From the IMG/VR virus record IMGVR_UViG_2724679138_000004: DNA of 36,866 bases. One strand, 5' to 3'. Position numbers and translations under genes: made by a program. Origin of the DNA: a virus. Taxonomy: Duplodnaviria; Heunggongvirae; Uroviricota; Caudoviricetes. The notes below the pieces were generated by a model. It saw only the letters and a list, made by a program, of their open reading frames with translations, did not search any database and had not been told where the DNA came from. Below, piece after piece: positions 1,936 through 32,712 of the stretch (its first letter is position 1; every line of letters starts with the position of its first letter).

Positions 1936-3099
1936 TCACTCATTATCTTCTGTTTCGTACTCCACATCAGAAAGCCTGACCTCAAGCTCCAGGGACGTCG
2001 TGAAGCCGCTATTATTCAGAAAATGTGTCACCTTAGTGATTGTCCAGTCCTGCTCGTCTATGACGCGCTTAAAGCCTGACACTTTGACCGGCGTTTCCGT
2101 GTAAATATCTGCCCGACCGGTAGCCATGCTGATGGAGAACTCCGCAACGCCCCGTTGCAGTTTATCCCACTTCGCCTGAGCGGCGCGCATGGCCTGCGCT
2201 TTCGTGGCATATACCGTGGTCAGGGCAAAAACATTGTCAGCCTCACCGGCCATGTATTCACCTTCGCGCGCTTCCGGCACTTTTGGCGCTTTCTTCTGCG
2301 TGACCGGTTTCGCTTTCGGGTGCTCCAGTGCGCGCAGGTGTTTCTCTTTCTTTTTGCGTTTCAGTTTTACCTTCTGCTTTTGTGGCTTCGGGTCTTTGGT
2401 GTGTAACCACTTTGCCGTTACGCCGGTGTAGGCTCCACGGTCAGCAATCGCAAAATGATGACGGTCGCCGTCGCTGCGGGTGATGGTAATCTGCGGGATT
2501 TTTTTACCGCTGGCCGTCACCCCCTGCCCCGCTTTGAGAAACAACAATTTTCCCATTTTTACCGACACCTCACCGCCGTTGCGTTCAGCAAGGCGGGTCA
2601 GGAATTTTGCATCAGACTCCTGCGACTGGTCGATGTGCGGGATTTTAATTCCGGCCAGTGACGGAGCGACACTGGCTTCCAGCCTGTTACGGGAGGCTAT
2701 CGCCTCAACAATCGCACCGAGCGTGGTGTCATGCCAGGAGCCTTCACGGCGGGAATTGAGCGTCCCGCGAAAATCTGCACTCCGGGCGCGGATGGTGACC
2801 ACATCCGGCGCGCCCCGGTGTTCAACCTCATCAACGGTAAATTTCCCTTTGCATACCAGGGCAAAACCTTTCCAGCCGATATACACCGTCAGGACAGCGC
2901 CACGAACCGGCAGCCCGACCTGCCCGTCGGCATCGTTCAGTTCAATATCAAGCTGGTCAGCCTCAAAGCCCCGGTTATCCGTCAGGGTCATACTCATCAG
3001 ACGGTCGCTGATATTGCCGGTAATATCCCTGCTGTCGAGCATCAGCATGTAATCCGGCATCAGCGTACTGCCTGCATCAAATGTCAGCGCATCCAGCAT
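1936..3099 (-). CDS. D: Tail protein D (late control gene D)
   Basis: 387 aa, same length and position as P2 gpD, immediately downstream of U. Confidence 0.9.
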   Translation of the reverse strand: MLDALTFDAGSTLMPDYMLMLDSRDITGNISDRLMSMTLTDNRGFEADQLDIELNDADGQVGLPVRGAVLTVYIGWKGFALVCKGKFTVDEVEHRGAPDVVTIRARSADFRGTLNSRREGSWHDTTLGAIVEAIASRNRLEASVAPSLAGIKIPHIDQSQESDAKFLTRLAERNGGEVSVKMGKLLFLKAGQGVTASGKKIPQITITRSDGDRHHFAIADRGAYTGVTAKWLHTKDPKPQKQKVKLKRKKKEKHLRALEHPKAKPVTQKKAPKVPEAREGEYMAGEADNVFALTTVYATKAQAMRAAQAKWDKLQRGVAEFSISMATGRADIYTETPVKVSGFKRVIDEQDWTITKVTHFLNNSGFTTSLELEVRLSDVEYETEDNE

Positions 3100-3578
3100 T
3101 ATCCCGCCCCCGTCATACCCGTGAATTTAGTCGCCATACTGCCAGCCTTACCAATGAGCGATTCCGCCTGTTTACCGATATCGCCATAAAGCGCGGCCAG
3201 TGACTCATCAACGCGGGTGAGCGACAGCGTAAAATCAATTTTTCGGGGTGTGCCGTCTGCAAAGAAAATACTCCCTGTTTCACTCACCTTGCTGATGACA
3301 TACATGCCGTAAATCATGCCGGTACCATCCAGCAACGGCCACGCCCGGCCTTCATCTGCCATCAGTCTGAGCGTGGTCATCGTCAGCTTGCCGCCGGTCA
3401 GTTCGGGATAAAGCACACCGGCAAGCGTCATGTTTTCCTCACCAACGCCGAGAAACTGGTAGGCATCCCGTTTACCGATACGGGAATTTGACGGCCAGCG
3501 ATAATCTGATTCACGCTGCATGGTCTGGTGTGGCAGCGTCTGGCGCATAAAAACAAACATACCTAACGCGAGCATCAT
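3099..3578 (-). CDS. U: Tail protein U
   Basis: 159 aa as in P2 gpU; overlaps the D start by 1 nt. Confidence 0.9.
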   Translation of the reverse strand: MMLALGMFVFMRQTLPHQTMQRESDYRWPSNSRIGKRDAYQFLGVGEENMTLAGVLYPELTGGKLTMTTLRLMADEGRAWPLLDGTGMIYGMYVISKVSETGSIFFADGTPRKIDFTLSLTRVDESLAALYGDIGKQAESLIGKAGSMATKFTGMTGAG

Positions 3579-3592
3579 TTTTCGTCACCTCC

Positions 3593-6040
3593 TTAACCGT
3601 CATGCATCATGCTGGCACGGGCGCGCGCACGTTTATCCCGCTCGTATTTTTCGAGCGCATCCTGTAACTGGCGGTCAAGCTGTGTCCCCGGTGCAGTACC
3701 ACCCGTCAGGCTGATGTGATATTCGTTTTTACTCTGGTCCACATAAGAGCGGCCAGCCGGTGCCGTGACCGGCTGATAAGCCTGATAGCCTGCATAAGAG
3801 CTGGTCGCCGGAATATAACCACCGCTGCAATACGTGGCGGCTTGAGTTCTGGCGGCGGTCTGGTCAAGTGTGTCTGACTCTTTGTTGATAACACCGAGTT
3901 TTTCCAGTACCCAGTCAATTCCGCTGCGCAGTTTGTTGAACGCATTAAGCGGCAGCATCAGCGCGTCAGCCAGTGCCTGCCCGAACATGACGCCCGTGTC
4001 ACGGCAACGGTTCAGGGTGTCCTGAGTGGCTTTGACCGGGGCAATCAGGTTTTTAAACCACTGCCACGCGGCCTGTAACTTTTCACCCAGCCAGTCAAAC
4101 ACCGGCTTAAGTGGCGTGAACAGTTCCCCCACCGGCGCAAATGCCACTTTCAGCCCTTCCACCACACCGCCAAAGAATGCGCTGACAGGCTCCCAGTATT
4201 TACGGATAAGCAACGCTCCGGCGACAATGGCGGCCACCACGGCCACAACCGGCCAGCTAATCGCCCCGATGGCCGTCATAACGGCACTGCCAACCGTCGT
4301 GAAGATTGCCCCCATTGCGCCTGCTGCCGCTATGATGGCATTGATGCCGGTGATAACCGGCCAGGCTACAAGACCAATGGCACCGATGATGCCAGTAAGC
4401 GCCAGTGCGCCACCGGCAATGATGCCGATGGTTGACGCCAGTGATTTGTTTTTCTGTATCCAGCCGTCGAGTTTTAACACATACTTTGTGGCCGTCTGCG
4501 TGAGCTTACGCAGCGCGCCTTCCTGCTGGTCAAACAGGTCAGTCCCCACCGCCTCATAAGCGGACTGAAACTCCTTAAAGTCACCGCCGAGGTTATCCTG
4601 CATGATTTTAACCAGCTCTTCCGTTTTACCGTCCGAGGCTTTCAGCGTGGCGGTCAGCGTATCCAGTTTTCCGCTTGCTGCCGCTGCCAGTAAAACGTTC
4701 GCTGATTTCAGGGCTTCCTCACCAAAAATGGTTTTAAGGTATTCCCCCTTCTGAGACGTTCCCAGCTTGTGTTTATCAAAGCTGGCCTGAATCTCTTTCA
4801 GAATGGTGAACAACGGACGCATATTTCCCTTTTTGTCCGAGGTTTTAACGCCAAGCTCTTTGAGTGCATCCCATGCTTTTCCAGTCGGTGCCTGTAATCG
4901 GGTGACAACGGCACTGCTACCCGTACCCGCCATTGACCCCCTGATGTTATTGTCATGCAGCACACCTGTCATGGCCGCTGCCTGTTCAAGACTTACACCT
5001 GCCGTCCTCGCAACCGGCCCGAGGTAAGTCAGTGCATCACTGAGTCCCTGAAAATCAGCCGCCGACTTATTCATCGTTGCCGACAACACGTCGCCCACAT
5101 GGCTGACATCATCATTTGACAGTTGAAAGGATGCCTTAGTCCCCAGCAACAGTTGCGCGTTTTCTTCCATCGACCGCTGATTCGCCAGTGCCATATTCAG
5201 CGTGACCGGCGTTGCCGCCTGAATGGCATCAACATCCCCACCGGCTTTCGCAATAATAATCTGCGCACCGGCTGCATCATCTGCCGAGGCTGCGGTATTG
5301 TCGCCGAGCTGACGCGCCTGCTTGCGTAGTGCAGCCATTTCGGCGGAGTCTTTTGCCACACCGAGCACGGCCTGCAATTCTGAGTTTTTCTGCGCAAACT
5401 CATAACCTGGCATCAGCAGCTTAACACCGGCCATCGTTCCCGCCGCCGCAATCCCCACACCGGCAGCGCCCACTGAGGCCATATTTCCGGCCAGTTCCTT
5501 TCCGGCCTGATAACGCTGTTTGACTGCGTTAAGTTTTGCCTGTTGCGCACTGACACGCGCCAGCGCATCACGCTGACGGTTAAGCTGTGCGGTGGTTTCA
5601 CTGATACGGTTTTTCAGTCCCTGCTCATCATGTGCAAGATTGCGGGTATTAATTCCCACAACGGCCAGTTCCCGCTGCTGGCGTTTAACGGAATCCGTCA
5701 GGCGGTTATATTTCGCCTGTAAGTCCTCCGCCGCACGCTTTGCGGATTCCAGCACTTTCGCCTGAGCACGGGTCGGTCGTTCGGTATTTTTAAACTGTGT
5801 GGCAAGGGCTTCGGCTTCCTGCCGAGCCTTTTCAAGTGCATGACCAGTCACGGCGAGCTGTGCACTGGTCTTGCGAAATCCCTCAATACGGGATGCCTGA
5901 CCGTTCAGCTCGCGCAGTGATTTTTGTGTTTCCCGGATATCCCCCGACAGCGATTTGCTCGCTGTGCGGATGGATTTAAACGGGCGGGATGCCTGGTCAA
6001 CAGCCCTGAGCAATACCTGTAATTTTACATTGTTACTCAT
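3593..6040 (-). CDS. T: Tail tape measure protein T
   Basis: 815 aa, coiled-coil N-terminus, Gly/Ala-rich hydrophobic central segment; P2 gpT length and position. Confidence 0.92.
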   Translation of the reverse strand: MSNNVKLQVLLRAVDQASRPFKSIRTASKSLSGDIRETQKSLRELNGQASRIEGFRKTSAQLAVTGHALEKARQEAEALATQFKNTERPTRAQAKVLESAKRAAEDLQAKYNRLTDSVKRQQRELAVVGINTRNLAHDEQGLKNRISETTAQLNRQRDALARVSAQQAKLNAVKQRYQAGKELAGNMASVGAAGVGIAAAGTMAGVKLLMPGYEFAQKNSELQAVLGVAKDSAEMAALRKQARQLGDNTAASADDAAGAQIIIAKAGGDVDAIQAATPVTLNMALANQRSMEENAQLLLGTKASFQLSNDDVSHVGDVLSATMNKSAADFQGLSDALTYLGPVARTAGVSLEQAAAMTGVLHDNNIRGSMAGTGSSAVVTRLQAPTGKAWDALKELGVKTSDKKGNMRPLFTILKEIQASFDKHKLGTSQKGEYLKTIFGEEALKSANVLLAAAASGKLDTLTATLKASDGKTEELVKIMQDNLGGDFKEFQSAYEAVGTDLFDQQEGALRKLTQTATKYVLKLDGWIQKNKSLASTIGIIAGGALALTGIIGAIGLVAWPVITGINAIIAAAGAMGAIFTTVGSAVMTAIGAISWPVVAVVAAIVAGALLIRKYWEPVSAFFGGVVEGLKVAFAPVGELFTPLKPVFDWLGEKLQAAWQWFKNLIAPVKATQDTLNRCRDTGVMFGQALADALMLPLNAFNKLRSGIDWVLEKLGVINKESDTLDQTAARTQAATYCSGGYIPATSSYAGYQAYQPVTAPAGRSYVDQSKNEYHISLTGGTAPGTQLDRQLQDALEKYERDKRARARASMMHDG

Positions 6041-8349: not shown

Positions 8350-8751
8350 AGTCGTGATTTGTACTCACTCATTTTCCGACTGACAATTTACTTAGCCCAA
8401 AAGCTATCAAATCTGACAGTCTGCTTTGAGCGATGAGCGGACGTTAATTTGGGGTTGTACGCCAGAACCGCAGAAATTTCCGTGACGCATAATGTTTGCG
8501 GTTGTCTGCCTGTACGTAAGACCGCCGTCAACCGGACAGTAAAGAAATGGCCGTTTGGAACGAAAAATCACTGACCGCAGCGTCTCACATAGCTGGTACG
8601 GATAAATTCTCACTCACGGCACCATAAACGTACACGTCAGCACATGCCAAACATGCTTCAAAATTCGACTAATTCACTGCGCCAGAAATTTCTGGCGGTT
8701 CCGGTACAGCCCCCCTATATTATGCGAATTGTTAATTAACACTGATCAGCA

Positions 8752-9810
8752 TTATTTTTCCTGTGTATCATCATTCAAATCCGGTGCAGTCCGAAGTACA
8801 TTCGTGAAGTTAAGAAGCATTTTTTTTGTGCCAAAAGTGAACATCTCAGAGATTTCAGATGAAATGCTATCCCAAATAAAAATGATATGCCTCAAATACT
8901 CAACAACTCCAGGCCGGTTCAATGTACCTTCGATAAGATAATGTTCAGGAATACCCTCCATTATTCCAGTCTTTCTTATCCAGAAAAGTCCAACCCTGTT
9001 GGCCGATTCACCACCTGCAAGCACATAACTACGACGTTGATCTGTGTTTGGAATAGAAAGTATTTCAAAAATTAAAGGCACGATCATTTCAAGCCTTACG
9101 AATGGCCTAGGATGTGTACCAACTGGTTCTGTTTGAACCTCATAAAGTTTTTCGCCTTGAAAACGATGTAACATTAATGATATACCACATGTCAAAAAGC
9201 AAATTGCCAATTCGCAATCTTCATTAATGGCAAGTTGTCGAACAATTTCTATTACACACATGTATGTGGAAAAATAATCGGCTGCAAGTTCCGTTGCGTG
9301 CCAAATGGCAGATGCATCGTCATTGTCTGATGATAAATTATTTAAGTGAATTTCAGACATTACATTAATTTCGGAACTATACCTGTTCCTTATAAATAAA
9401 TGGCCCTGAGTTAAGTGTCCTAACTCATGAAAAAAAACCCATGTCAAACCTGCTAGAAAAATGTTTTTAGTGAAATTAGTTTTATCCCACTCATTTCTTA
9501 AAGTGGTAAAGTTGGTTTGCCCATTAAACCACATATCATAAACTTCATCATCTTTACCAGAGTGAACATAATCTACAAAAGCAGCAGCATCATCATATAA
9601 TGATCGGATTAATTTATATGTGATTGATATAGCATGCCTTGGTGGTTCATCACGCTCTGAGTAAACTAAAGCTCTAGCGTTCACAATATCTGTAGTTTCA
9701 AATTGTAAAGCGAGACTGCCATTAATTTCTTTATAGTAATGTTCATTCAAATCTTCTGTAATAGAAGACAAAACACTTGTAGCCCAGTTGTATAGCGCGA
9801 TACTTTCCAT
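8752..9810 (-). CDS. Hypothetical protein with zincin-like HExxH motif (FFHELGHLTQGH); candidate defence cargo in the FI-G (Z/fun) hotspot
   Basis: 352-aa ORF, visibly AT-rich relative to flanking tail genes; HELGH encoded at 9415-9429; acidic residues downstream (HATELAAD) could supply the third zinc ligand. No family assignment possible without search. Confidence 0.75.
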   Translation of the reverse strand: MESIALYNWATSVLSSITEDLNEHYYKEINGSLALQFETTDIVNARALVYSERDEPPRHAISITYKLIRSLYDDAAAFVDYVHSGKDDEVYDMWFNGQTNFTTLRNEWDKTNFTKNIFLAGLTWVFFHELGHLTQGHLFIRNRYSSEINVMSEIHLNNLSSDNDDASAIWHATELAADYFSTYMCVIEIVRQLAINEDCELAICFLTCGISLMLHRFQGEKLYEVQTEPVGTHPRPFVRLEMIVPLIFEILSIPNTDQRRSYVLAGGESANRVGLFWIRKTGIMEGIPEHYLIEGTLNRPGVVEYLRHIIFIWDSISSEISEMFTFGTKKMLLNFTNVLRTAPDLNDDTQEK

Positions 9811-10094
9811 TTGACACCATTAGAAAATTTGTTATTTATTTCTATTTTTTGAAAAATCACTTTTTAAAAAGTGGTCATATGCATAACTGAAAGCTGCGTT
9901 GTCACTGTCAAAATCATTTTCCGTTATGGCTTCCCATCCCCTCAACCACTTGTGCCTAATGCGCCACTTATGGGGTCCGCTTGGAAAACGGAAAATATCC
10001 TACGTTAAGCCTGTTTTTTAAGCAAGCATGACAGGCAGCTTTGAGCGAGGAGCGAACATGTGGTTTTTCAATAGTAACACCCGCTCCTTCCATC

Positions 10095-10415
10095 CTACTG
10101 CGGAGTGCAATCTATAGATAAAATCGTTTTCCGTGACTTAGCTTCTGGAGGGGACATTTCCTCGCTTTCGCTGATATTGAAGCTCCATGCGCCAACGCCT
10201 TTGACTTTCGAAAACAACAATTCACCTTCATAGCCTAGATCGTCAGTGCCAGCGATTATGACCATCCCACTCAACGTTCTCTGGTATGCATTCTCAAAAA
10301 CACGCCCCTCATAATCAATAGTTGCCCGTTCTTTGTCGAAGACAACCGCTTTGTCGCCCTCACAACGCATTACTGACTTGGCTTGTGATACACAGGAAAA
10401 ACCCAGAAGGATCAA
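10095..10415 (-). CDS. Small hypothetical protein, possible Sec signal peptide (…LLILILLGFSCVSQA|KSV)
   Basis: 106-aa ORF with TTG start in the track; no in-frame ATG upstream, so the true start and the signal-peptide reading are uncertain. Confidence 0.4.
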   Translation of the reverse strand: MILLGFSCVSQAKSVMRCEGDKAVVFDKERATIDYEGRVFENAYQRTLSGMVIIAGTDDLGYEGELLFSKVKGVGAWSFNISESEEMSPPEAKSRKTILSIDCTPQ

Positions 10416-10481
10416 TATCAGCAGTCTTTTAATTATTTATCTTCTACATACATAATTAAGGAGTGAAGTGGTCAACAAAAA

Positions 10482-10520
10482 CTGGCCGCATTATAAGATA
10501 TGTTTCAAGAACCACAAACG
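10482..10520 (-). promoter_or_regulatory. Candidate sigma70 promoter for the cargo genes (perfect -10 TATAAT on the minus strand at plus 10490-10495; weak -35 TTTGTG)
   Basis: Hexamers read by eye in the G-cargo intergenic region; 17-nt spacer. Confidence 0.3.
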
Positions 10521-15894: not shown

Positions 15895-16680
15895 ATGTTC
15901 AGTGATAATGTGACTAATGCGTGGTGGTTTATCTCTTTGTATCTATTTTTATTAATAGCATTAACATTTATTACCTTTGGTAAAAGTAATCTTATGAGAT
16001 TTATTGCACATCATTTCAATTTTGAGTATTCAGACAGAAAGTTAAAAATGCTCGACAAAAAATGGCGCGACATTCAACTATTTAAAATAATTAACGGAAT
16101 CAATGTATCAGGCATCGAAGATGTGAGAATGATACAGCAGGGGCTGATTGATGGAAAACTAAAAACATCGTATTTTTTTCTTACTCGCTTCTGGGGTGAC
16201 ATAACAAAACCACCACACATAATTAAAACAATAATTGTAATTCTGTCCAGCATTATTTATATTCTCTTCGCATGTTATATACACAACAAACAATCCGCTA
16301 TAGTAAGAGATGCCATAGGCATACCATATAAAAATATGATGTACTATGTTTATAGTGACAAAGTTCTTTTATCCTTCAACAATAAAACAGTTGAATTCAA
16401 TAAAACTTATAGCCTTGCCGATTGCAAGAGGCTACGAAACGTATTTATAAAAGACACACTTCCTGAGATCGCCTGCAATAAGCTCTTACAGCTAAACGAG
16501 GAGGACTCGGAATGGTTAAGTCAGGAGATTAAAGATAATAACAGCCAAAAAAAAGCATTATTAATAATATCCCTCATCTATTTCATTTCAGGTCTGGTTA
16601 TATTCCTGTCATATACAAAATTCCTTTACGCCAATAAGAAGGTTGTAGAATACAAAGCATCAAATAAAAATCACTCATAA
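15895..16680 (+). CDS. AT-rich moron: hypothetical membrane protein with three predicted transmembrane helices
   Basis: 261-aa ORF on the strand opposite the late genes; strong RBS GAGGAGAG 5-12 nt upstream of ATG; hydrophobic segments near aa 9-28, 108-128 and 220-245; occupies the P2 orf30 position between V and S. Confidence 0.8.
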   Translation: MFSDNVTNAWWFISLYLFLLIALTFITFGKSNLMRFIAHHFNFEYSDRKLKMLDKKWRDIQLFKIINGINVSGIEDVRMIQQGLIDGKLKTSYFFLTRFWGDITKPPHIIKTIIVILSSIIYILFACYIHNKQSAIVRDAIGIPYKNMMYYVYSDKVLLSFNNKTVEFNKTYSLADCKRLRNVFIKDTLPEIACNKLLQLNEEDSEWLSQEIKDNNSQKKALLIISLIYFISGLVIFLSYTKFLYANKKVVEYKASNKNHS

Positions 16681-16686
16681 ACCTCT

Positions 16687-16721
16687 AAACATTGAGCGAC
16701 CAGCATGGCCGCTCAATGTTT
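16687..16721. terminator. Bidirectional hairpin terminator between the moron (+) and S (-)
   Basis: Perfect 12-bp inverted repeat AAACATTGAGCG / CGCTCAATGTTT with an 11-nt loop, T-rich on both sides. Confidence 0.55.
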
Positions 16722-16751
16722 AATTGCGCATCAGCCTCTGCCTGGATAAAA

Positions 16752-17204
16752 CTAACGCTCAAGGTGAGCCAGGATAATCTCTTCAATCATCTGCACATCC
16801 TCACCGGTAAAGCCGAGCAGAGGACGCGCCGGATAATCAATTTTCTTACCGTCTTTCCGGGTTTCTTCCGACAGACCGAACTGATGCACACTGGCGATTT
16901 TCGGCGACTTCCCGCCGTAAAATTCCATTGATGCCTGTTCCGGGCTGGCGCGGATATGCAAAAAACGACTGGTGATAAGTTTCGCAAACATTTTTCGTTT
17001 AACGCGACCGGTCTTTTTTCTGGCGCTCTGCTGCTGGCGTGGTGCGTAGGGTGTGCCGTCCGGGGCTTTCTGTGCCATCACCCGACGCTGCTGACTCTGA
17101 CGCAGACGTTTCGCCAGTTCGGCACTCAGTCGCCGACGCCCTGACGGTGACAGCGACTCAATAAGTCCGGTCAGCCGGTCTTCAAAACGCTTAAACTCAT
17201 TCAT
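16752..17204 (-). CDS. S: Tail completion protein S
   Basis: 150 aa; P2 gpS length and position. Confidence 0.9.
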   Translation of the reverse strand: MNEFKRFEDRLTGLIESLSPSGRRRLSAELAKRLRQSQQRRVMAQKAPDGTPYAPRQQQSARKKTGRVKRKMFAKLITSRFLHIRASPEQASMEFYGGKSPKIASVHQFGLSEETRKDGKKIDYPARPLLGFTGEDVQMIEEIILAHLER

Positions 17205-24898: not shown

Positions 24899-25917
24899 TG
24901 AGCAAGAAAAAAGGGAAAACACCGCAACCTGCGGCAAAAACAATGACCGCCAGCGCCCCGAAAATGGAGGCATTCACCTTTGGTGAGCCGGTGCCGGTAC
25001 TCGACCGCCGTGACATTCTGGATTACGTCGAGTGCATCAGTAACGGCAGATGGTATGAGCCGCCGGTCAGCTTTACCGGTCTGGCGAAAAGCCTGCGTGC
25101 TGCCGTGCATCACAGCTCGCCGATTTACGTCAAACGCAATATTCTGGCCTCGACATTTATCCCGCATCCGTGGCTTTCCCAGCAGGATTTCAGCCGCTTT
25201 GTGCTGGATTTTCTGGTGTTCGGTAATGCGTTTCTGGAAAAGCGTTACAGCACCACCGGTAAGGTCATCAGACTGGAAACCTCACCGGCAAAATATACCC
25301 GCCGTGGCGTGGAGGAGGATGTTTACTGGTGGGTGCCGTCCTTCAACGAGCCGACAGCCTTCGCGCCCGGCTCCGTGTTTCACCTGCTGGAGCCGGATAT
25401 CAATCAGGAGCTGTACGGCCTGCCGGAATATCTCAGCGCCCTTAACTCTGCCTGGCTGAATGAGTCGGCCACGCTGTTCCGCCGCAAGTATTACGAAAAC
25501 GGCGCTCATGCCGGATACATCATGTATGTCACCGATGCCGTGCAGGATCGCAACGATATCGAAATGCTTCGCGAAAACATGGTTAAGTCGAAAGGCCGCA
25601 ACAACTTTAAAAACCTGTTTCTCTATGCCCCACAGGGGAAAGCCGACGGCATTAAAATTATCCCCCTCAGTGAAGTGGCGACGAAGGACGATTTTTTTAA
25701 TATCAAAAAAGTCAGCGCCGCAGATCTCCTGGACGCACACCGCATCCCCTTTCAGTTGATGGGCGGTAAGCCGGAGAATGTCGGGTCACTAGGAGATATT
25801 GAAAAAGTGGCAAAGGTCTTTGTCCGCAATGAACTCATTCCATTACAGGAGAGAATAAAGTCAATAAATGAATGGTTAGATATGGAAGTCATAAAATTCC
25901 TTGATTATAACTTATAA
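24898..25917 (+). CDS. Q: Portal protein Q
   Basis: 339 aa; P2 gpQ-like, immediately downstream of P. Confidence 0.9.
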   Translation: MSKKKGKTPQPAAKTMTASAPKMEAFTFGEPVPVLDRRDILDYVECISNGRWYEPPVSFTGLAKSLRAAVHHSSPIYVKRNILASTFIPHPWLSQQDFSRFVLDFLVFGNAFLEKRYSTTGKVIRLETSPAKYTRRGVEEDVYWWVPSFNEPTAFAPGSVFHLLEPDINQELYGLPEYLSALNSAWLNESATLFRRKYYENGAHAGYIMYVTDAVQDRNDIEMLRENMVKSKGRNNFKNLFLYAPQGKADGIKIIPLSEVATKDDFFNIKKVSAADLLDAHRIPFQLMGGKPENVGSLGDIEKVAKVFVRNELIPLQERIKSINEWLDMEVIKFLDYNL

Positions 25918-25929
25918 GTAAATATATAA

Positions 25930-25956
25930 AGTTGGCGGAATGCAATCCCGCCAACT
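25930..25956. terminator. Hairpin terminator between convergent Q (+) and the 2TM gene (-)
   Basis: Perfect 9-bp stem AGTTGGCGG / CCGCCAACT; T-rich on the minus-strand 3' side. Confidence 0.55.
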
Positions 25957-25959
25957 TAA

Positions 25960-26667
25960 CTATATATACTTCCTTTTCACTCTACTTAATTCTATCACTG
26001 ATGAGGAGTGACAAAATGACAAATTAATAGTATCGATATAATCCAAAATTTGACTCTCAACCTCAATAAAAATATTTTTGGGCCCATTACTAATCGATAT
26101 ACCGATTTCATCCAAAACAGCCATCATTTTTCTCTGATGAGTTTTATATTTATAGTCTTTATTTTCCTCTGTAATATGCGCATTGGCTTCCTCAATAACG
26201 CATTTGATTCTAGATATTATTTCTAGATAATCTCTCGAAACAGATATATCACCGCCTTGCGCTTCAGGGAACATAACCCTATACCATCTAAAAAAATTAA
26301 CTTTCTCTGGATAGATGCTACTTCTTTTAGTTAACTCAGCACTTGCAAATTCTCTAAACATCGTCAGATGACTAGTGTAATTACTATTATTATTATTTTT
26401 AACTCCAGCGTTATATGTCATCAAAGCAATCATAACACCAAAAACGGTAACAAAAGTTGTTATAAGCCATCCAAACGCCTGAAAATACATTACTATACCA
26501 GATGTTTTTTCCGCAAAAAATTTTAAGCACTGGCTATCGAAGCATATATCACGCTCATATAGCTTTTCATTCTGAATAGTTTCAAAAAGAGAAATTAGCG
26601 AAAAAATCAAAAAAAGAGCTGACGACACACCGACAATATATTTGAGAAGTCTAATATTTGCATTCAT
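25960..26667 (-). CDS. Two-transmembrane-helix protein, putative effector partner of the upstream reverse transcriptase
   Basis: 235 aa, strongly AT-rich; hydrophobic helices near aa 8-28 and 58-85; start ATG overlaps the RT stop (ATGA), indicating translational coupling. Confidence 0.8.
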   Translation of the reverse strand: MNANIRLLKYIVGVSSALFLIFSLISLFETIQNEKLYERDICFDSQCLKFFAEKTSGIVMYFQAFGWLITTFVTVFGVMIALMTYNAGVKNNNNSNYTSHLTMFREFASAELTKRSSIYPEKVNFFRWYRVMFPEAQGGDISVSRDYLEIISRIKCVIEEANAHITEENKDYKYKTHQRKMMAVLDEIGISISNGPKNIFIEVESQILDYIDTINLSFCHSSSVIELSRVKRKYI

Positions 26668-27938
26668 AATGGTTTTAAAGATGCCAATCTAGATTTAAAA
26701 CACTCCAGTTTTTCTTTAAATGATTCAGAGCGAGTAAGAATAATCATCTTATATCTCGTCAAATCATATTTTCTTTTATACCAATGTTTATTTTGATTAC
26801 CTTTCGAATACGACAACTCTAAACTTTTTATAGCTGCATCAATCACAGCAACATCTCTTTTAGATGGCATCGGTTTTATTGCCTGCAACTGTTTCTTGAA
26901 TGATTCATATTTTTCATGCCCAACACGGCCAAGCTTATTCACTCTCCCCATACATCTATTGAATTCTTTTCTGTATGCAACACTTGTTTTTGTGTTATTT
27001 TTTGCCGCCAGTAATTTCAAATTATGTATAGATGCCCTGATTCTTTTGACTTCATCGGATGGTAGTCGAGGTGAGTCATAGTCAACTCTTAAACCATGTA
27101 CTTTTATAGGTTCAGATGAACAGTGAAATATTTTAGTTTTGTGCTTATTTATCGGCAAGTCATGCTCAGAAAGCATCCTCTCTATATGGCTTTGCATTTG
27201 AGAAAAATCATAATTACTTATTTTAGATGACACGGTAATATCATCTACCAAACGCGTATAAACAAGTCCTTTCCTCTGCGCACGTCTTACCACATCCCCT
27301 TCAACAGCGAATAAACACAAAGTTGCTATATAGCTTGATGTTAAGGCCCCCTGTACGACAAAATCATCCTTAGTACATATATCCACCAAGTATTCAAGAG
27401 CCTCATCCTTAATATGCAATATCTCCTCAAACACGCTCCTAACCAGATCTCTATGGATATTATCGAAAAAATTACTTATATCCACCTTGAGAACTGTTTT
27501 TGCTCCACAATGAGCCTTTGCACATGAAACATAGTCACGTTTGACATTAGAATTTAAAACATCATTTTTACTGGGAACTGAACCAAACAAAAATGAAGGA
27601 AAAACAACCAATTCCTTAAAGATACGTTTATTAATTCTACTCTGTAATAATCTCATTTTAGGATGCAGGGAGTAGACAATCCGTTTGCTTCCGTCAATTT
27701 TGGGAATTTCTTTTAGAGTATATTTCTCATCTAATGGTAATTCTGCAATAGCTTTAAGCTCTTCAACAGAAATCGATAAAGCCTTTGACAACTTTTCAAG
27801 TGTTGTGATAGGAGCATTGGATTTGCTGTATGGTTTAAATTTATCCATAAACATACCATTCAAATTCAAAGTTACGTACGGTCTTCCCATACTCAAGGGT
27901 GGAACAGCAGAGATGCTTACATCAACAATTGTCAGCAA
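26664..27938 (-). CDS. Retron-type reverse transcriptase (candidate); start codon uncertain
   Basis: RT motifs in order: LKVDISNFFDNI, QGALTSSYIATLCL, YTRLVDDITVSS (catalytic xDD at about 27239-27248), LPINKHKTKIF, VHGL; ORF in track starts at TTG 27938, alternative ATG starts at 27890, 27854, 27848. Confidence 0.8.
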   Translation of the reverse strand: MLTIVDVSISAVPPLSMGRPYVTLNLNGMFMDKFKPYSKSNAPITTLEKLSKALSISVEELKAIAELPLDEKYTLKEIPKIDGSKRIVYSLHPKMRLLQSRINKRIFKELVVFPSFLFGSVPSKNDVLNSNVKRDYVSCAKAHCGAKTVLKVDISNFFDNIHRDLVRSVFEEILHIKDEALEYLVDICTKDDFVVQGALTSSYIATLCLFAVEGDVVRRAQRKGLVYTRLVDDITVSSKISNYDFSQMQSHIERMLSEHDLPINKHKTKIFHCSSEPIKVHGLRVDYDSPRLPSDEVKRIRASIHNLKLLAAKNNTKTSVAYRKEFNRCMGRVNKLGRVGHEKYESFKKQLQAIKPMPSKRDVAVIDAAIKSLELSYSKGNQNKHWYKRKYDLTRYKMIILTRSESFKEKLECFKSRLASLKPL

Positions 27939-28106
27939 CAGCCTCTGCTATCTTTCGACCGTACGTAATGTCGTCGGCTACGGCACCATCGTAGTTGACG
28001 ACGGTGGGGCCTCGCTGATAGGTCCATAGTGGACGCTTTTTTGTAAAAGCAAAAACTGACAATTTAATGTTGTTGACTGCCGCATACCAAGCGAATCGCT
28101 GGTGCG
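27927..28106 (-). ncRNA. Candidate retron msr/msd-like non-coding RNA upstream of the RT
   Basis: 9-bp inverted repeats (plus-strand CTGACAATT 28056-28064 and AATTGTCAG 27927-27935) bracket about 120 nt containing hairpins, e.g. GTCGTC-aa-CTACG-loop-CGTAG-cc-GACGAC at about 27968-28005; hypothetical. Confidence 0.3.
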
Positions 28107-28112
28107 CTAAGA

Positions 28113-28141
28113 ATAATGCAACAAAAAAATAAGAATTTCAA
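28113..28141 (-). promoter_or_regulatory. Candidate sigma70 promoter driving the candidate ncRNA and RT (TTGAAA-17 nt-CATTAT on the minus strand)
   Basis: -35 at plus 28136-28141, -10 at plus 28113-28118, 17-nt spacer. Confidence 0.4.
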
Positions 28142-28179
28142 CCGGGTAACTGCAAGCCAGCGACATCGTTTAGCGCGCA

Positions 28180-28198
28180 GTGCTTTCCCCGCCTCGCC
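28180..28198. other. cos cohesive-end site (reverse complement of GGCGAGGCGGGGAAAGCAC)
   Basis: Exact match to the 19-nt P2 cohesive end as I recall it; lies between Q and A as expected. Confidence 0.75.
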
Positions 28199-28404
28199 CG
28201 CCCGCTTCATGGGGCGGTTTTAATGCAGTTGCATGACCACTCAACTAGCGCGCCAGTCCTGATGTCGCCAGGCAGTTATTGTTCTCTGACTTGCATGCGC
28301 TTCGATGCAGAGTAATGCACTTCCTGAATTGCTCGCATTCGCATCGTTATCATGATAGAAAACAGGTAGTTATTTGTGCGCAACTTAAGAAGAAATCACT
28401 AATT

Positions 28405-29948
28405 ATGAAAAAGATTTATGAATTAACTACTGGTAGAGCGCTTAAGTATTTTCTGCAGCATGATTCATACACTACTCTGGAGCTACCCAGTTATGTCGAT
28501 TTTTCTTCCTTGCTTGAAGAAATCAACTCCGCGATAGATGAAGGTAAAATCAACTTCCAACCTGACTCCAAGTCATTGATGGGGAAGAATATAAATTACG
28601 AGGTTTTAGTCAGCAAAGATGGCTTATATAGCTGGCGACGAATAACACTAATTAATCCTCTGTACTACGTGTATTTTTGTAAACTTATTACATCCCCTTC
28701 CAACTGGAAGGCTATAAGGAATAAATTTAGAGAGTTTGAGTCTAATGATCTTTTTTATGCTCAAGTACCCCAGTGAGCAAAAAGAACACCTCAAACGTAG
28801 CTGCATCTGTTTTAAACTGGTGGGAAGATTTTGAACAAAAAAGTCTTTCATTGGCTCTTGAGTATGAGTTCATGTTCAGCACAGATATTTCAAACTTCTA
28901 CCCTTCTATTTACACTCATAGCTTTGAATGGGTATTCATCTCAAAAGAAGAGGCCAAAAAGAAAGAAAATAACAATAACCCAGGACGATTGATTGACACT
29001 CATATCCAGATGATGATGAGTAATCAGACAAACGGAATACCATTGGGTAGTACGTTGATGGATACATTTGCCGAATTAATTTTAGGCGAAATTGATTTAC
29101 AGCTAAGAAAAAAAACTGAAGAGCAAAAAATAACGGATTACAAAGTAGTTCGCTACAGAGATGATTATCGAATATTTTCAAGCAGTAAAGATGATTTGGA
29201 CAAAATCTCAAAGTGTTTGGTTGAGGTCTTAGGTGAGTTTGGGCTTGATTTAAACTCAAGAAAAACAGAACTACATGACGACATCATTCTTCACTCCCTT
29301 AAATCAGCAAAAAAAGAATATATTATAGAAAGGTCGTTCAACTCCCTACAGAAAATGTTGTATGCAATATATTTATTTTCTTTAAAACATCAAAACTCCA
29401 AAATTACAGTTAGATATTTAAATGATTTCTTGCGAAAATTATTTAGGAAGAAAAAGATCACAAATAGTGGGCATCAACTAGATGCAATGCTTGGAATTAT
29501 TTCAAGCATCATGGCTAAAAACCCAACCACCTACCCAGTGGGAATGGCTATTTTCGCAAAACTCTTGACCTTCCTTTATGACGACGATGAACTCAAATTT
29601 GGCAAGTTACAACAACTTCATTGTAAACTAGGTAAACAACCAAATACTGAAATGTTAGATATTTGGTTTCAACGAGTTCAAGGGAAGATACACACACAAT
29701 GGGAAGGCGATTACAAAACAGCCCTATGTCAACGCATAAATGATGAACTCAAGGAAAAAAAAACATTTACCATTGATGGCCTGTGGGATGTAGAGTGGAT
29801 TCCGGGTTCAGCCAAAAATAAAAACAAACAGAAAATACTATCAATTTTGAAAAAAACAAAAATTGTGGATTTAGATGCATTCGAAGAAATGGATAATGAT
29901 ATTACACCAGAAGAAGTGAACTTATTCGACAAGGAACACAGCGCTTAA
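28405..29948 (+). CDS. Abi/UG-type reverse transcriptase split by a -1 frame change at a T6 run (segments 28405-28776 and 28773-29948); possible pseudogene or programmed frameshift
   Basis: Segment 1 carries RT motif 1-like RRITLINPLYYVYFCKL; segment 2 carries FMFSTDISNFYPSI, NGIPLGSTLMDTFAEL, VVRYRDDY (YRDD at 29154-29165) and FGLDLNSRKTEL; frame 0 opens at 28749 and the T6 run is 28751-28756. Confidence 0.75.
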
Positions 29949-30046
29949 CGAAACAATGTTATTAACTCAACATGACTTCGTTAAGCATTAAAGCGAACAG
30001 TCATATGAAATTTCGACATCCCTAACGCCTCGCAAGCTCGTTGTTC

Positions 30047-30092
30047 ACCCCCGCCAGCACTGAAAGCGAGTTTCAGCGTCGACGGGGTTTTC
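30047..30092 (+). terminator. Rho-independent terminator downstream of the second RT
   Basis: GC-rich imperfect hairpin CCCCGCCAGCACTGAAA-gcgag-TTTCAGCGTCGACGGGG followed by TTTTC. Confidence 0.6.
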
Positions 30093-30113
30093 TATGGTCA
30101 ACGTGGTGACAGA

Positions 30114-30374
30114 TTATGGGCACGCGTGAAGGTAGAAATATGGACGGTTGGGATTATTGATTTCTCCCATACGGCTGCAGTTATCACTGACGCTCTCAGT
30201 CCCTCCGACCAACTCGTAGAGGGTCAGATTCTCTTTGACCATAATTTGTAAACAATAGCCATCAGCCGCAGACTCTTGCACGAGTACAATGGCGGAACCG
30301 GACGCATAGCTAGTAATGTATGCATTAGTCATAATGACATGCTTCCAAAGCAAGATCGCCACGCAGTTCCGCAT
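30114..30374 (-). CDS. Small hypothetical protein downstream of A (P2 orf91 position)
   Basis: 86-aa ORF only; no recognisable motif. Confidence 0.3.
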   Translation of the reverse strand: MRNCVAILLWKHVIMTNAYITSYASGSAIVLVQESAADGYCLQIMVKENLTLYELVGGTESVSDNCSRMGEINNPNRPYFYLHACP

Positions 30375-30435
30375 GATCCATCAGTTGCTGATACCAACCA
30401 TCAAGTGGAAGAAAAATCAACCATTTCAATCATTT

Positions 30436-32712
30436 TTATATGTTTGTTGAGAATCCCGGCCACTCATCAGCGACCGGATACGTGAATTTTTCCCCGTCAT
30501 AATTTACGGTCGCGCCACGCGCCAGCGCCTCAAGCTCCCATCGCTGTGGCCTGATACCGTTCTGAGCAAGGTCAACGCGGATACGGGTAATTTGCGTTCG
30601 TTCCGACCGGGTCAGTCTGGCCGATGGCGCTATTTCATGTGGTTTTAACGGGCTTCCGTTTCTCTGCTGACGATTTGGTGTTCTCAGTTCGTGTTTTAAT
30701 GCACCTCTGAGCGCCCTCACGACCTCTGGCTCATTCCATTCGATAACACCGTCATCAACCAGATTAAGCACTGCTGCGGCGTGCTCAGAAGGTGTGGGAG
30801 CCGGTAACGAAGTATCACCGTCGGTAAGCTTTCCACAGTTATTGACAGGACTCCGAGGCGCGGCGATGCCGCTTTTTAAAGTCAAAGGCTCAACGACCGG
30901 CACTTTCGGAACAATGCGCCAGTCCGTCGTTCTGGTGATATGAATATGACGCGCGCCGAGATGCGGCGCGTAAATGCCGACCACTCTCTCGACTTCTTCC
31001 TCGTACTCGTTAACGTCATCCGACGGGCTACGGGCAACCCTGACAGTCTGGCAATCGCGCGGGACATTTGCCCCACCCTGCGCGCTGATATACAGCGCAA
31101 AATCACCACTGTCTGCGGCGGCGCGTGCAGCCTCGACGCGCTCGTCAAACTCATCAGCAATGCTGACGCCGCGAGGCAATTTGCGTAGTTCACGGTAAGC
31201 CCCCATTGTCGGCAGGCCAACCGTTTTAAATTGCGGAATGCGCCACGTTGACGCCCATGCGGTAACAGCCGCGGCAGTATCTTTCAGCGGTCTGCCGGTA
31301 TCGTTATCGAGCTGCCCATCCAGTGCATAGCCGTCGATATTTTTTGAGATGTATTTCGCGATATACCCCGCAGCACCGCCCCAGTTAAGGTGTTTTGCCT
31401 GAAAACGGTTTCGCGCGGCTCCTCTTTCGTCGCCATCCTCTTTGAGCGCATAGCGACGCATGATTTCGATAATCTGGTTACGCTGGCGTGGATGACAAAA
31501 AAGCATCATATGCCAGTGCGGCGTTCCGTCGTGGTGTGGCTCGACGACACGCAAACCGTAGACCTGTAAATCATTATCCTTGAATGCCGTGCGCATCAGG
31601 CTCCAGATACGGCAGAGATAACGCTGCGCATCCTTTGGATTAAATGCCTCATCGTTCCAGCCGTGATTAAGCTGAACGGTTTTACTTTCGCCTTTTCCGA
31701 CCTGACGTGTCGGGTGATACTTTGACGGCGCGGTCAGCGTGATAAACATCCCCAAATCACCCTCTGCGGCGGCGTAACGCTCAATACCGGCAATGGTGTT
31801 CATCAGCTCCATCCGGCGAATTTCTGGATTAGAAATACTGCCCATCACCTTACTGATAAGGTCGATGCGCTCGCCGGTTTCCCTGTTTTCAAGGTCACAC
31901 GATTTAAGAAATTCCAGATTTGCCTGGCGGCGCGCACGCACATCACGAATGGCATGTTTACTGGCATAAGGAGAACGGTCTTTATTGACCTCCCCGACAG
32001 CAATCAGTAACGCCTCATGCCAGCGCATACGCTGGCCTTTAAGCTGACTAATCCACCACTCATCGTTAAACAGACGGGCAATGGCAGAATATGCCTGCCT
32101 CGTGGTCATCTGTCCTTTACGGTATTTTTTCCAGTAGAGCGGGGAAATATTGAAAGCACGTGCAGCGCCAGCAACATGACCATACAGGTGAGCCTGCGCC
32201 TCATCCGTAAACAGCGATTCTTTTTCACCATGCGCATCAACCCATGCATCGCAGAGTTCCTCATACATCATGAAAAGCTGCGATGAGATACGGGCGGCAA
32301 ACTTTTTCAGCTCCTTGTCATTCATTCCAGGCAGGCGCGCATAGTGGTCACGCTCTGCCAGAAACAGCAACGACGCGTCGGTGTTCATTTCATGGCGCTG
32401 ATTCACGCGCTCAATGCGCGGCCATAAACGACGCTGAAAAGTGGATGTGAGGAAATAAAACCCGTGCACCGGGCTTTTATTGCGCCGGATGTAGTCATAG
32501 CGTGAAGTAAACAGCGAGCGCAAAAAGTAAGGCAGGCGGTTAATCGTGGATAAAACACCTTGCACCTGACGCATCTCGTCACGTGTAAGGGGTCTTTCGC
32601 GCCCGACAGCCTCGCGTGGCGCGTTCCATACATAAGCACCGGTAAACGTCTTACCGGTGCCTGCGGCAAATGCTGACGGAGGGACAAAACGCCCGGAGGC
32701 TTTAACGGCCAT
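30436..32712 (-). CDS. A: Replication initiation protein A (rolling-circle nickase)
   Basis: ATG at 32710-32712 gives 758 aa (MAVKASGRFVPP...), close to P2 gpA; the listed ORF extends to an upstream TTG. Confidence 0.9.
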   Translation of the reverse strand: MAVKASGRFVPPSAFAAGTGKTFTGAYVWNAPREAVGRERPLTRDEMRQVQGVLSTINRLPYFLRSLFTSRYDYIRRNKSPVHGFYFLTSTFQRRLWPRIERVNQRHEMNTDASLLFLAERDHYARLPGMNDKELKKFAARISSQLFMMYEELCDAWVDAHGEKESLFTDEAQAHLYGHVAGAARAFNISPLYWKKYRKGQMTTRQAYSAIARLFNDEWWISQLKGQRMRWHEALLIAVGEVNKDRSPYASKHAIRDVRARRQANLEFLKSCDLENRETGERIDLISKVMGSISNPEIRRMELMNTIAGIERYAAAEGDLGMFITLTAPSKYHPTRQVGKGESKTVQLNHGWNDEAFNPKDAQRYLCRIWSLMRTAFKDNDLQVYGLRVVEPHHDGTPHWHMMLFCHPRQRNQIIEIMRRYALKEDGDERGAARNRFQAKHLNWGGAAGYIAKYISKNIDGYALDGQLDNDTGRPLKDTAAAVTAWASTWRIPQFKTVGLPTMGAYRELRKLPRGVSIADEFDERVEAARAAADSGDFALYISAQGGANVPRDCQTVRVARSPSDDVNEYEEEVERVVGIYAPHLGARHIHITRTTDWRIVPKVPVVEPLTLKSGIAAPRSPVNNCGKLTDGDTSLPAPTPSEHAAAVLNLVDDGVIEWNEPEVVRALRGALKHELRTPNRQQRNGSPLKPHEIAPSARLTRSERTQITRIRVDLAQNGIRPQRWELEALARGATVNYDGEKFTYPVADEWPGFSTNI

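Follow-up and report, generated by a model that had tools for sequence, protein, structure and literature searches.

Retron Ec48 (Retron-Eco6) as probable cargo beside cos in a P2-like prophage, and a conserved RNA hairpin upstream of its reverse transcriptase gene

The stretch of DNA analysed here (the window, 36,866 nt; virus record IMGVR_UViG_2724679138_000004) carries a two-gene operon on the minus strand between portal gene Q and cos. GC content is 0.32–0.37 over 26000–28000, with flanks at about 0.55, which together with the two ORFs bears out the AT-rich operon reported in a preliminary description made from the sequence alone. The first gene encodes a reverse transcriptase (RT; 26664–27848, minus strand, 394 aa from the ATG at 27848) and the second a two-transmembrane protein of 235 aa (25960–26667, minus strand), with hydrophobic segments at about residues 5–32 and 58–86 in the hydropathy profile. 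The start of the second gene overlaps the RT stop by 4 nt (ATGA), and the ORFs, the overlap and the two N-terminal transmembrane segments are all as first described. A terminator-like hairpin with a 13-bp stem and a T-rich tail (25929–25957) lies between the stop of the second gene and the end of gene Q.

Mechanical ORF calling gives the RT 424 aa, from a TTG (26664–27938, minus strand). These coordinates, used in the preliminary description, are correct for the ORF, but the start is over-extended, the first 30 or so "codons" being a conserved RNA hairpin (see below). Since the RefSeq start is at 27848 and most homologs are 394–396 aa long, the RT probably starts at 27848. Two further in-frame ATGs lie upstream, at 27854 and 27890. 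Counted from the latter (a 408-aa form), the catalytic aspartates are residues 216 and 217, the D216/D217 of the literature, and both the numbering and the positions of the published Ec48 D216/D217 and transmembrane-segment mutants (Millman 2020) agree with this locus, where both hydrophobic segments fall within residues 3–85. All 13 closer sequences keep the ATG at 27890, which is in frame with the RT in the closest ones only; a leader peptide or conserved RT start there was rejected, as the ORF that follows it stops after 2–14 codons in relatives.

Both proteins belong to families named for type IV retrons. The RT matches the PADLOC profile RT_IV with an E value of 7.6e-177 (586 bits; residues 36–423 of the 424-aa ORF on positions 2–385 of the 386 in the profile), the runner-up retron profile being RT_V (3.8e-63, 212 bits), and also matches Pfam RVT_1. 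The 235-aa protein has 2TM_IV as its sole PADLOC family match (4.1e-85), scores 226.7 bits (2.3e-67) against the NCBIfam equivalog retron_Ec48_2TM, for which the cut-off is 65 bits, and is named as Ec48 family by RefSeq (PGAP). Its exact sequence bears the UniRef RepID TM48_ECOLX ("Retron Ec48 transmembrane protein"), in a cluster that could be of the 90% or the 50% level. The retron with a two-transmembrane effector proposed earlier is thus borne out. Two supposed anomalies of the RT proved otherwise in an alignment of homologs, in which YTRLVDD and the N-terminal SISxLxxLSxALSI are invariant or conserved throughout the type IV family: LVDD, regarded as a non-canonical catalytic box, is an invariant trait of the family, and the HTH-like N-terminus, regarded as unusual, is a conserved one.

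Upstream of the RT gene lies a perfect 9-nt inverted repeat (28056–28064 and 27927–27935) with 120 nt between its arms, and the RNA inside the repeats folds better than 200 of 200 shuffled sequences (z = -3.9). From inverted repeats and covariation, the 5' arms of the priming duplex were placed at 28056–28076 (a1' 28076–28072 and a1 28064–28056) and the 3' arms at 27922–27935 (a2 27935–27927 and a2' 27926–27922), all on the minus strand. Compensatory changes were found at 7 of the 9 a1/a2 pairs in alignment A3 (13 sequences) and at all 9 in 21 distant sequences, with 90–92% pairing against 27–49% in slid controls. This covariation, which extends across 33 related loci, marks the 9-bp repeats as genuine a1/a2 priming repeats. 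The preliminary description had allowed that such repeats might be absent from homologous loci; they are present there and covary, and its ncRNA, bracketed by a1/a2 and with hairpins in between, stands with an exact repeat and a low-energy fold. Its statement that the downstream copy abuts the RT start does not, as this applies to the mechanical TTG only and the start at 27848 lies 79 nt beyond a2. In A3 (the 13 closer relatives) a1 ends in an invariant AG (A51 and G52), and the terminal a1/a2 pair is G-C in 15 of the 21 distant loci, making G28056 a candidate for the branching G.

The predicted transcript begins with a hairpin, H0 (28086–28103, minus strand), whose 7 pairs include 5 with compensatory changes and are formed in 100% of cells across 13 sequences. 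The msr body as aligned (27984–28050, minus strand) consists of H1 (28050–28035), H2 (28034–28022), a conserved linker and H3 (28006–27984). Covariation was seen for a1'/a2', H1 and H2 in both close and distant relatives. H3 occurs in every sequence, but as the MAFFT alignment leaves its register ambiguous it was omitted from covariance model R2. This model replaced a gapless search for a1 in the distant loci, whose significance per locus was marginal since it misses bulged duplexes. Hairpin H4 was not conserved in the distant relatives (43% paired), and a closing stem proposed by RNAalifold (GCAR/YUUGC) showed no compensatory changes, one of its pairs varying on one side only. A scan of viral contigs with the motif CACCCTTGANNATGGG gave 120 loci, 9 with the RT and 3 of these adding diversity; the remaining loci were rejected as relatives, being chance matches to the 14 specified bases. 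The ncRNAs of retrons vary from one type to another (Mestre 2020). An Rfam scan of 25500–30500 at E <= 1 returned no retron RNA family and only a chance snoRNA match inside the effector gene; as Rfam holds no type IV model, this non-match does not tell against type IV. The Eco6 ncRNA sequence was not found in Palka 2022 or in the supplements of the retron census, and substrings of the ncRNA and msDNA sequences had no match in a full-text literature search.

A sigma-70-like promoter, TTGAAA-17-CATTAT (28113–28141, minus strand), precedes H0. It was correctly located in the preliminary description, but "well-formed" is too strong a term for it: the consensus scan gives 9 of 12 positions, and the match is not significant alone, with 11 comparable sites in the region against 9.4 expected. 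Similar hexamers were read by eye at an equal distance 5' of H0 in several relatives (including L036, L134 and L037). Transcription from this promoter would begin near 28106, at a distance of about 40 nt from the site of cos cleavage. The 19-mer GGCGAGGCGGGGAAAGCAC (28180–28198, minus strand), which we take to be P2 cos, matches exactly and bounds the retron cargo, and the stretch around it (28172–28256) is all of the query that P2-family phages conserve. From gpQ to this conserved segment there are about 160 nt in the retron-less P2-like phage 9W and about 2,250 nt here, in agreement with the earlier remark that P2 has almost nothing between Q and cos.

The hotspot of P2 between gpA and gpQ is reported to contain retrons (Rousset et al. 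2022). The present locus resembles it in having AT-rich cargo beside cos, between gpQ and gpA, where other P2-like phages carry other systems, but differs in that cos is flanked by RT systems on both sides, the retron towards Q and AbiP2 across cos from it. The AbiP2 gene (PADLOC match, 1.8e-116) appears to be broken in the window by a 1-nt deletion at a T-run (28746–28751).

RT, effector and ncRNA of the Ec48 family are all present and intact at this locus. We therefore identify the module, with a probability of about 0.93, as retron Ec48 (Retron-Eco6) of type IV, carried as cargo by a P2-like prophage in its defence hotspot near cos. The question left by the preliminary description, whether this is a known retron type or a divergent one, is thereby answered: the element is already known, and it is neither divergent nor an unknown RT system. 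Ec48/Eco6 is the type IV reference retron and among the best-characterised anti-phage retrons. The locus shares with it the RT family, the effector family, the gene order (ncRNA, RT and, overlapping the RT stop, a two-transmembrane gene) and residue numbers that fit those published, with no demonstrable difference; the evidence that its ncRNA and RT are those of the reference isolate (Mao et al. 1997) is indirect. The accession of the reference RT is WP_097505494.1. A 2,361-nt segment spanning the locus recurs at 100% identity in three complete E. coli genomes, among them EC93, the locus is 99.7% identical in phage pro147 and is carried by 57 of 5,426 genomes, and the RT is paired with an Ec48-type effector gene in all 10 relatives retrieved by protein look-up. 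Retron Ec86 (Eco1) shares the retron RT fold by sequence (E=6e-16, residues 15–277) and the a1/a2-primed msDNA mechanism, but is of type II-A, with another effector and a long, self-paired msd hairpin. In a PDB sequence search, Ec86 was the closest solved retron RT structure (top match, 6e-16), and no structure of a type IV RT or effector was found.

Two other accounts of the module were weighed. That it is a non-retron defence RT of the Abi, UG or DRT class adjoining a membrane protein by chance might be thought of because the neighbouring gene beyond cos encodes a genuine AbiP2-class RT, so that non-retron RT systems do use this hotspot, and because the catalytic box is LVDD where YADD is typical of retron RTs. 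In the comparison with retron, Abi, UG and DRT profiles, however, RT_IV was the best by far and no non-retron clade was favoured, the NCBIfam profiles Drt3a, Drt2 and AbiA reaching only 3e-10 to 1e-5, far under their cut-offs; with LVDD invariant among type IV retron RTs and covarying a1/a2 repeats bracketing an ncRNA, this reading is effectively refuted. A decayed or silent Ec48 copy that has lost its function is very improbable as well. The apparent break in the AbiP2 gene does suggest that cargo decay occurs in this prophage, and the match of the promoter is modest, but both retron ORFs are intact, identical sequences occur on hundreds of contigs, YTRLVDD and every family-invariant residue are retained, all ncRNA helices are intact, and three other genomes carry the segment unchanged.

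In Eco6, priming takes place at the 2'-OH of the a1-terminal G, from which the RT reverse-transcribes the neighbouring msd RNA; the product, an msDNA of 48 nt (45 nt by sequencing), has been observed by PAGE and sequencing (Palka 2022) and is made constitutively and in abundance. From the position of a2 and the published length, the msd template was predicted at 27936–27983 (minus strand); the RT would prime at the a1-terminal G and copy this template into an msDNA equal to the plus strand of 27936–27983, CAACAGCCTCTGCTATCTTTCGACCGTACGTAATGTCGTCGGCTACGG. Defence by Ec48 needs RT activity and both transmembrane helices of the effector (Millman 2020), and the Eco6 effector expressed alone is non-toxic (Palka 2022). 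Ec48 guards RecBCD: when this is blocked by lambda Gam or T7 gp5.9, cells die before the phage cycle is completed, i.e. by abortive infection (Millman 2020), and triggering of Eco6 by Gam has also been reported independently. Here, too, a phage inhibitor of RecBCD (Gam or gp5.9) would be expected to cause death of the retron-bearing cell and abortion of the phage cycle.

A further structure was detected at the 3' side of the ncRNA by means of a 12-nt perfect repeat, RNAalifold and covariation. This conserved 3' hairpin (27872–27968, minus strand) consists of an outer helix (27968–27957 with 27883–27872; 98.7% of cells paired, compensatory changes at 7 of 12 pairs), an inner helix (27952–27943 with 27912–27903; 91.5% paired, 8 of 10 pairs) and a side branch (27901–27886) with the motif CACCCUUGAnnAUGGG, which is identical in the six closest sequences, differs slightly beyond these and is kept in Pseudomonas. 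Its 5' arms are formed by the predicted msd template and its 3' arms by the RT leader, and a2 sits in the apical loop. With covariance model R1 the hairpin was recovered from 28 of the 32 distant loci, 27 of them at E <= 2e-4, in every case directly 5' of the RT, with 96.2% of hairpin cells paired and compensatory changes at 24 of 25 pairs, a result reached by none of 500 shuffles. No description of this architecture was found in the searchable literature.

Since the msd template and the RT leader make up the two sides of the hairpin, which holds a2 in its loop, a pseudoknot or a switch is implied: the hairpin would either form a pseudoknot with a1/a2 or alternate with a1/a2 pairing. We tentatively suggest, while regarding it as rather doubtful, that the type IV ncRNA is not a plain msr-msd closed by a1/a2, its msd being held in a 22-bp two-helix hairpin, and that msDNA synthesis is coupled to expression of the RT and effector. 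Reverse transcription with RNase H would destroy the 5' arms and free the 3' arm and CACCCUUGAnnAUGGG immediately 5' of the RT ribosome-binding site, so that each round of msDNA synthesis would remodel the leader of the RT mRNA. The hairpin could instead be a passive element, namely a stabiliser of the 3' end, a leaky attenuator raising the ncRNA over the RT mRNA, or an RNase III site, which is plausible although short of probable. This very stable hairpin (-41.8 kcal/mol) dominates the minimum-energy fold and ends 17–43 nt upstream of the RT start at every locus, with a short U-run after it in some relatives (TTTTAAT in Pseudomonas), and retron ncRNA regions are reported to exceed the remainder of the operon greatly in abundance. 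A simple stabiliser, on the other hand, needs neither a 5' arm made of msd template nor a2 in the loop, and both are kept in 41 of 41 sequences examined; the conservation of the side-branch motif, which does not vary among the closest relatives and persists in Pseudomonas, also speaks against a passive role. No consistent U-tract follows the hairpin, and a role as intrinsic terminator was rejected on this ground.

Type VI retrons, the sister group of type IV in RT clade 3, offer a comparison for the suggested coupling of msDNA synthesis to expression (bioRxiv 10.1101/2025.10.22.683967). In the type VI Retron-Vpa2, as here, structured RNA extends past the classical msr-msd and base pairing or repeats link the msd physically to a downstream translation-initiation region. 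There, a small toxic ORF is embedded, direct repeats let the msDNA pair with a riboregulator, and msDNA is undetectable until triggered. In type IV, by contrast, the repeats are inverted, so that the msDNA is of like sense to the downstream arm and unable to pair with it; no small ORF is conserved, and msDNA is abundant and constitutive. If the coupling is true, the type IV hairpin may be a cis-acting counterpart of the msDNA-controlled riboregulator of type VI.

The element itself adds little to what is known, as Ec48/Eco6 had been described, the effector already named by PGAP and the P2 cos hotspot published. The comparative data suggest that the classical a1/a2 model gives an incomplete picture across the whole type IV family, which bears on the trimming of retron ncRNAs for genome-editing constructs and on a possible ancestral link, in clade 3 retrons, between msDNA synthesis and the control of translation. 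The locus also provides a natural example of a putative retron promoter situated this close to the cos cleavage site, with a second RT system across it. Type IV retrons are found in other mobile elements as well, as they lie within P4-like satellites in 7 of the 10 relatives for which gene context was retrieved.

Between portal gene Q and cos, the window carries an AT-rich block of two minus-strand genes (GC 0.32–0.37, versus approximately 0.55 in the phage structural genes to the left), with P2-type terminase and portal genes as left-hand neighbours. A mechanically called ORF of 424 aa with a TTG start (26664–27938, minus strand) overlaps by ATGA with an ORF of 235 aa (25960–26667, minus strand). 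In the 235-aa protein, hydrophobic segments at about residues 5–32 and 58–86 match the two transmembrane (2TM) helices previously placed near its N-terminus, and the promoter-like sequence TTGAAA-17-CATTAT is indeed present at 28141–28113 (minus strand). An exact copy of the 19-mer assigned to P2 cos, which we take to be the P2 cos sequence, was found at 28198–28180. The distance from the end of gpQ to the conserved cos segment is about 2,250 nt in the window versus about 160 nt in the P2-like phage 9W, which lacks this cargo. Base composition, ORFs, overlap and spacing all agree with the block outlined in the preliminary description. In the 42-nt gap between the ends of Q (25917) and the effector gene (25960), a terminator-like hairpin with a 13-bp stem (25929–25957) is likely a bidirectional terminator shared by these converging genes. 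A 48-aa ORF at 28064–28210 (minus strand), comparable to ORF32 of Escherichia phage pro147, overlaps the cos site and the retron promoter; small hypothetical proteins are annotated at a similar place in several P2-like phage records, and the ORF, lying over conserved cos DNA, is probably a spurious gene call.

The block had been proposed to be a retron with a 2TM effector, and profile searches bear this out. Along its whole length the reverse transcriptase (RT) matched PADLOC's profile for type IV retron RTs (E = 7.6e-177), with RT_V as the second-best retron type (E = 3.8e-63), and the effector matched only 2TM_IV in PADLOC (4.1e-85) and scored 226.7 bits with the NCBIfam equivalog retron_Ec48_2TM (cut-off 65). 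RefSeq names the effector "retron Ec48 family effector membrane protein", and its exact sequence is listed under the UniRef name "Retron Ec48 transmembrane protein" (RepID TM48_ECOLX), which could be the name of a 90% or 50% cluster. A 2,361-nt query spanning the module (25900–28260) was matched at 100% identity by three complete E. coli genomes (EC93, PapRG-06-3 and EcWJ), was covered to at least 80% in 57 of 5,426 genomes, and shared 99.7% identity with phage pro147. Ec48 is inactivated by RT D216A/D217A and by deletion of effector residues 3–85 (Millman et al.); the catalytic aspartates fall exactly at 216/217 when numbered from the in-frame ATG 27890, and both hydrophobic segments lie inside residues 3–85. 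We conclude from these sequence comparisons that the module is very probably retron Ec48 (Retron-Eco6), which Mestre's classification uses as its type IV reference.

The cos-proximal gpA–gpQ interval of P2-like phages is a defence hotspot, with retrons among its 169 systems (Rousset et al.). The finding is real and was correctly interpreted, but since Ec48/Eco6 in the P2 hotspot is already known, the module as such is of low interest. Among other Enterobacterales, most type IV relatives lie in P4-like satellites, at the equivalent hotspot bounded by the Ogr/Delta gene and the integrase. In seven such loci (L037, L038, L160–L163 and L165, from Providencia, Morganella, Cronobacter, Citrobacter, Pectobacterium, Yersinia and Proteus) the P4-like satellite has the retron downstream of the primase, so that type IV retrons occupy both P2 and P4 hotspots. 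A locus of Enterobacter kobei (L164) has neither context; its Ec48-type effector (2685–3725) has 346 aa instead of the usual ~235, and its upstream neighbour contains type VI secretion domains (ImpA_N/VasL).

Two traits of the RT regarded as unusual in the preliminary description proved to be ordinary. In an alignment of 24 family members (46–79% identity), Y-T-R-[LF]-V-D-D does not vary, which makes LVDD normal for the family; the VHGLR block is also invariant, and the N-terminal "HTH-like" stretch is likewise conserved. The TTG at 27938 falls within the ncRNA and is too far upstream: most homologs have 394–396 aa, their first residue corresponding to M31 of the 424-aa ORF (27848), where RefSeq also annotates the start.

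The a1/a2 repeats were located as described, as a perfect 9-nt inverted repeat (28056–28064 and 27927–27935), and the RNA enclosed folds better than 200 of 200 shuffles (z = -3.9). Relatives were taken from 10 closer loci (RT identity 52–77%) plus 3 viral contigs, and from 33 distant loci (one genome per species, RT identity 40–55%). In the 13 non-redundant alignable sequences, a1/a2 showed compensatory changes in 7 of 9 pairs (93% of cells paired), a second segment, a1'/a2' (28076–28072 with 27926–27922), in 2 of 5 and the 5' hairpin H0 in 5 of 7, with covariation also in hairpins H1 and H2. Overall pairing was 90.4%, versus 33–45% with slid partners, and 0 of 500 shuffles reached the observed covariation. 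The last two bases of a1 are AG in all 13 sequences, as would be expected around the branching G. R2, a covariance model built on this canonical fold, detected the element 5' of the RT gene in distant genomes, where 9 of 9 pairs in a1/a2 and 5 of 5 in a1'/a2' were compensatory; the repeats are thus present and covarying in homologous loci, close and distant.

A second structure, the 3' hairpin (27872–27968, minus strand), crosses these repeats. Its outer helix, a perfect 12-nt inverted repeat found by repeat search (27968–27957 with 27883–27872), is 98.7% paired with 7 of 12 pairs compensatory in the 13 sequences, and its inner helix (27952–27943 with 27912–27903) is 91.5% paired with 8 of 10. 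The computed energy of the hairpin with both helices is -41.8 kcal/mol, and RNAalifold, run independently, favours this hairpin over a1/a2. R1, a covariance model of the hairpin alone, matched at full length in 28 of 32 distant loci (27 at E <= 2e-4, best 5e-17), always on the RT strand and ending 17–43 nt upstream of the RT start; in this independent set 96.2% of cells were paired and 24 of 25 pairs compensatory, values reached by 0 of 500 shuffles. The hairpin is well supported as a structure. Its 5' arms belong to the predicted msd template and its 3' arms to the RT leader, with a2/a2' in the 30-nt apical loop. Since the two helix sets cross, they must form a pseudoknot or alternative states. 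The minimum-energy fold of the full leader (-82.7 kcal/mol) contains the 3' hairpin, versus -76.0 kcal/mol for the nested fold with a1/a2 forced; the a1/a2 duplex by itself gives -17.5 kcal/mol.

The side branch of the hairpin carries a motif (CACCCUUGAnnAUGGG) that does not vary among the six closest sequences and is kept in Pseudomonas. In the window it reads CACCCUUGAGUAUGGG (27886–27901, minus strand), with slight variants in L160 and L162–L164, and contains ATG 27890, the origin of the 408-aa RT numbering in the literature. All 13 closer relatives keep this ATG, yet several have a stop 2–14 codons further on, so it is conserved at the RNA level; the motif probably acts as RNA and might bind a protein. 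No description of a type IV 3' hairpin was found in the searchable literature, where Mestre's ncRNA models are trimmed at a1/a2, and a search for retron pseudoknots returned solely engineered or DRT2 cases. The crossing hairpin is the only potentially new point.

For Ec48, msDNA synthesis has been shown by others, defence depends on RT catalysis and the transmembrane helices, and the RecBCD inhibitors Gam and gp5.9 activate the system, leading to cell death. In the window, one transcript would start near 28106, and the RT would prime from G28056 and copy 27936–27983, giving a predicted 48-nt msDNA, CAACAGCCTCTGCTATCTTTCGACCGTACGTAATGTCGTCGGCTACGG. The RT would have to unwind the 3' hairpin while copying, and once RNase H had removed the template, the 3' arm and the conserved motif would be left unpaired a short way 5' of the RT ribosome-binding site. 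This may regulate expression of RT and effector, or the hairpin may serve only as a scaffold for priming, or may stabilise the ncRNA or attenuate it; a classical terminator is disfavoured because no consistent U-tract follows it. In the recently described type VI retrons (RT clade 3, sister to type IV), msDNA derepresses translation inside a longer "hybrid RNA". This works through direct repeats and a toxic small ORF that is absent from type IV.

Across cos from the retron, an AbiP2-class RT gene (28405–29948, plus strand) matched PADLOC AbiP2 in two pieces (8.8e-36 and 1.8e-116), being split into ORFs of 165 and 391 aa by an apparent frameshift near 28746–28751. The T-run there is T6 versus T7 in EC93, the sole difference in 1.7 kb, where RefSeq shows the gene unbroken at 1,545 nt; the missing T reflects either a genuine frameshift or an error in sequencing the homopolymer. 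Two further low-GC islands (8500–10500 and 16000–17000; GC 0.34–0.43 in an otherwise 0.55-GC prophage) are possible sites of other variable P2-like phage cargo.
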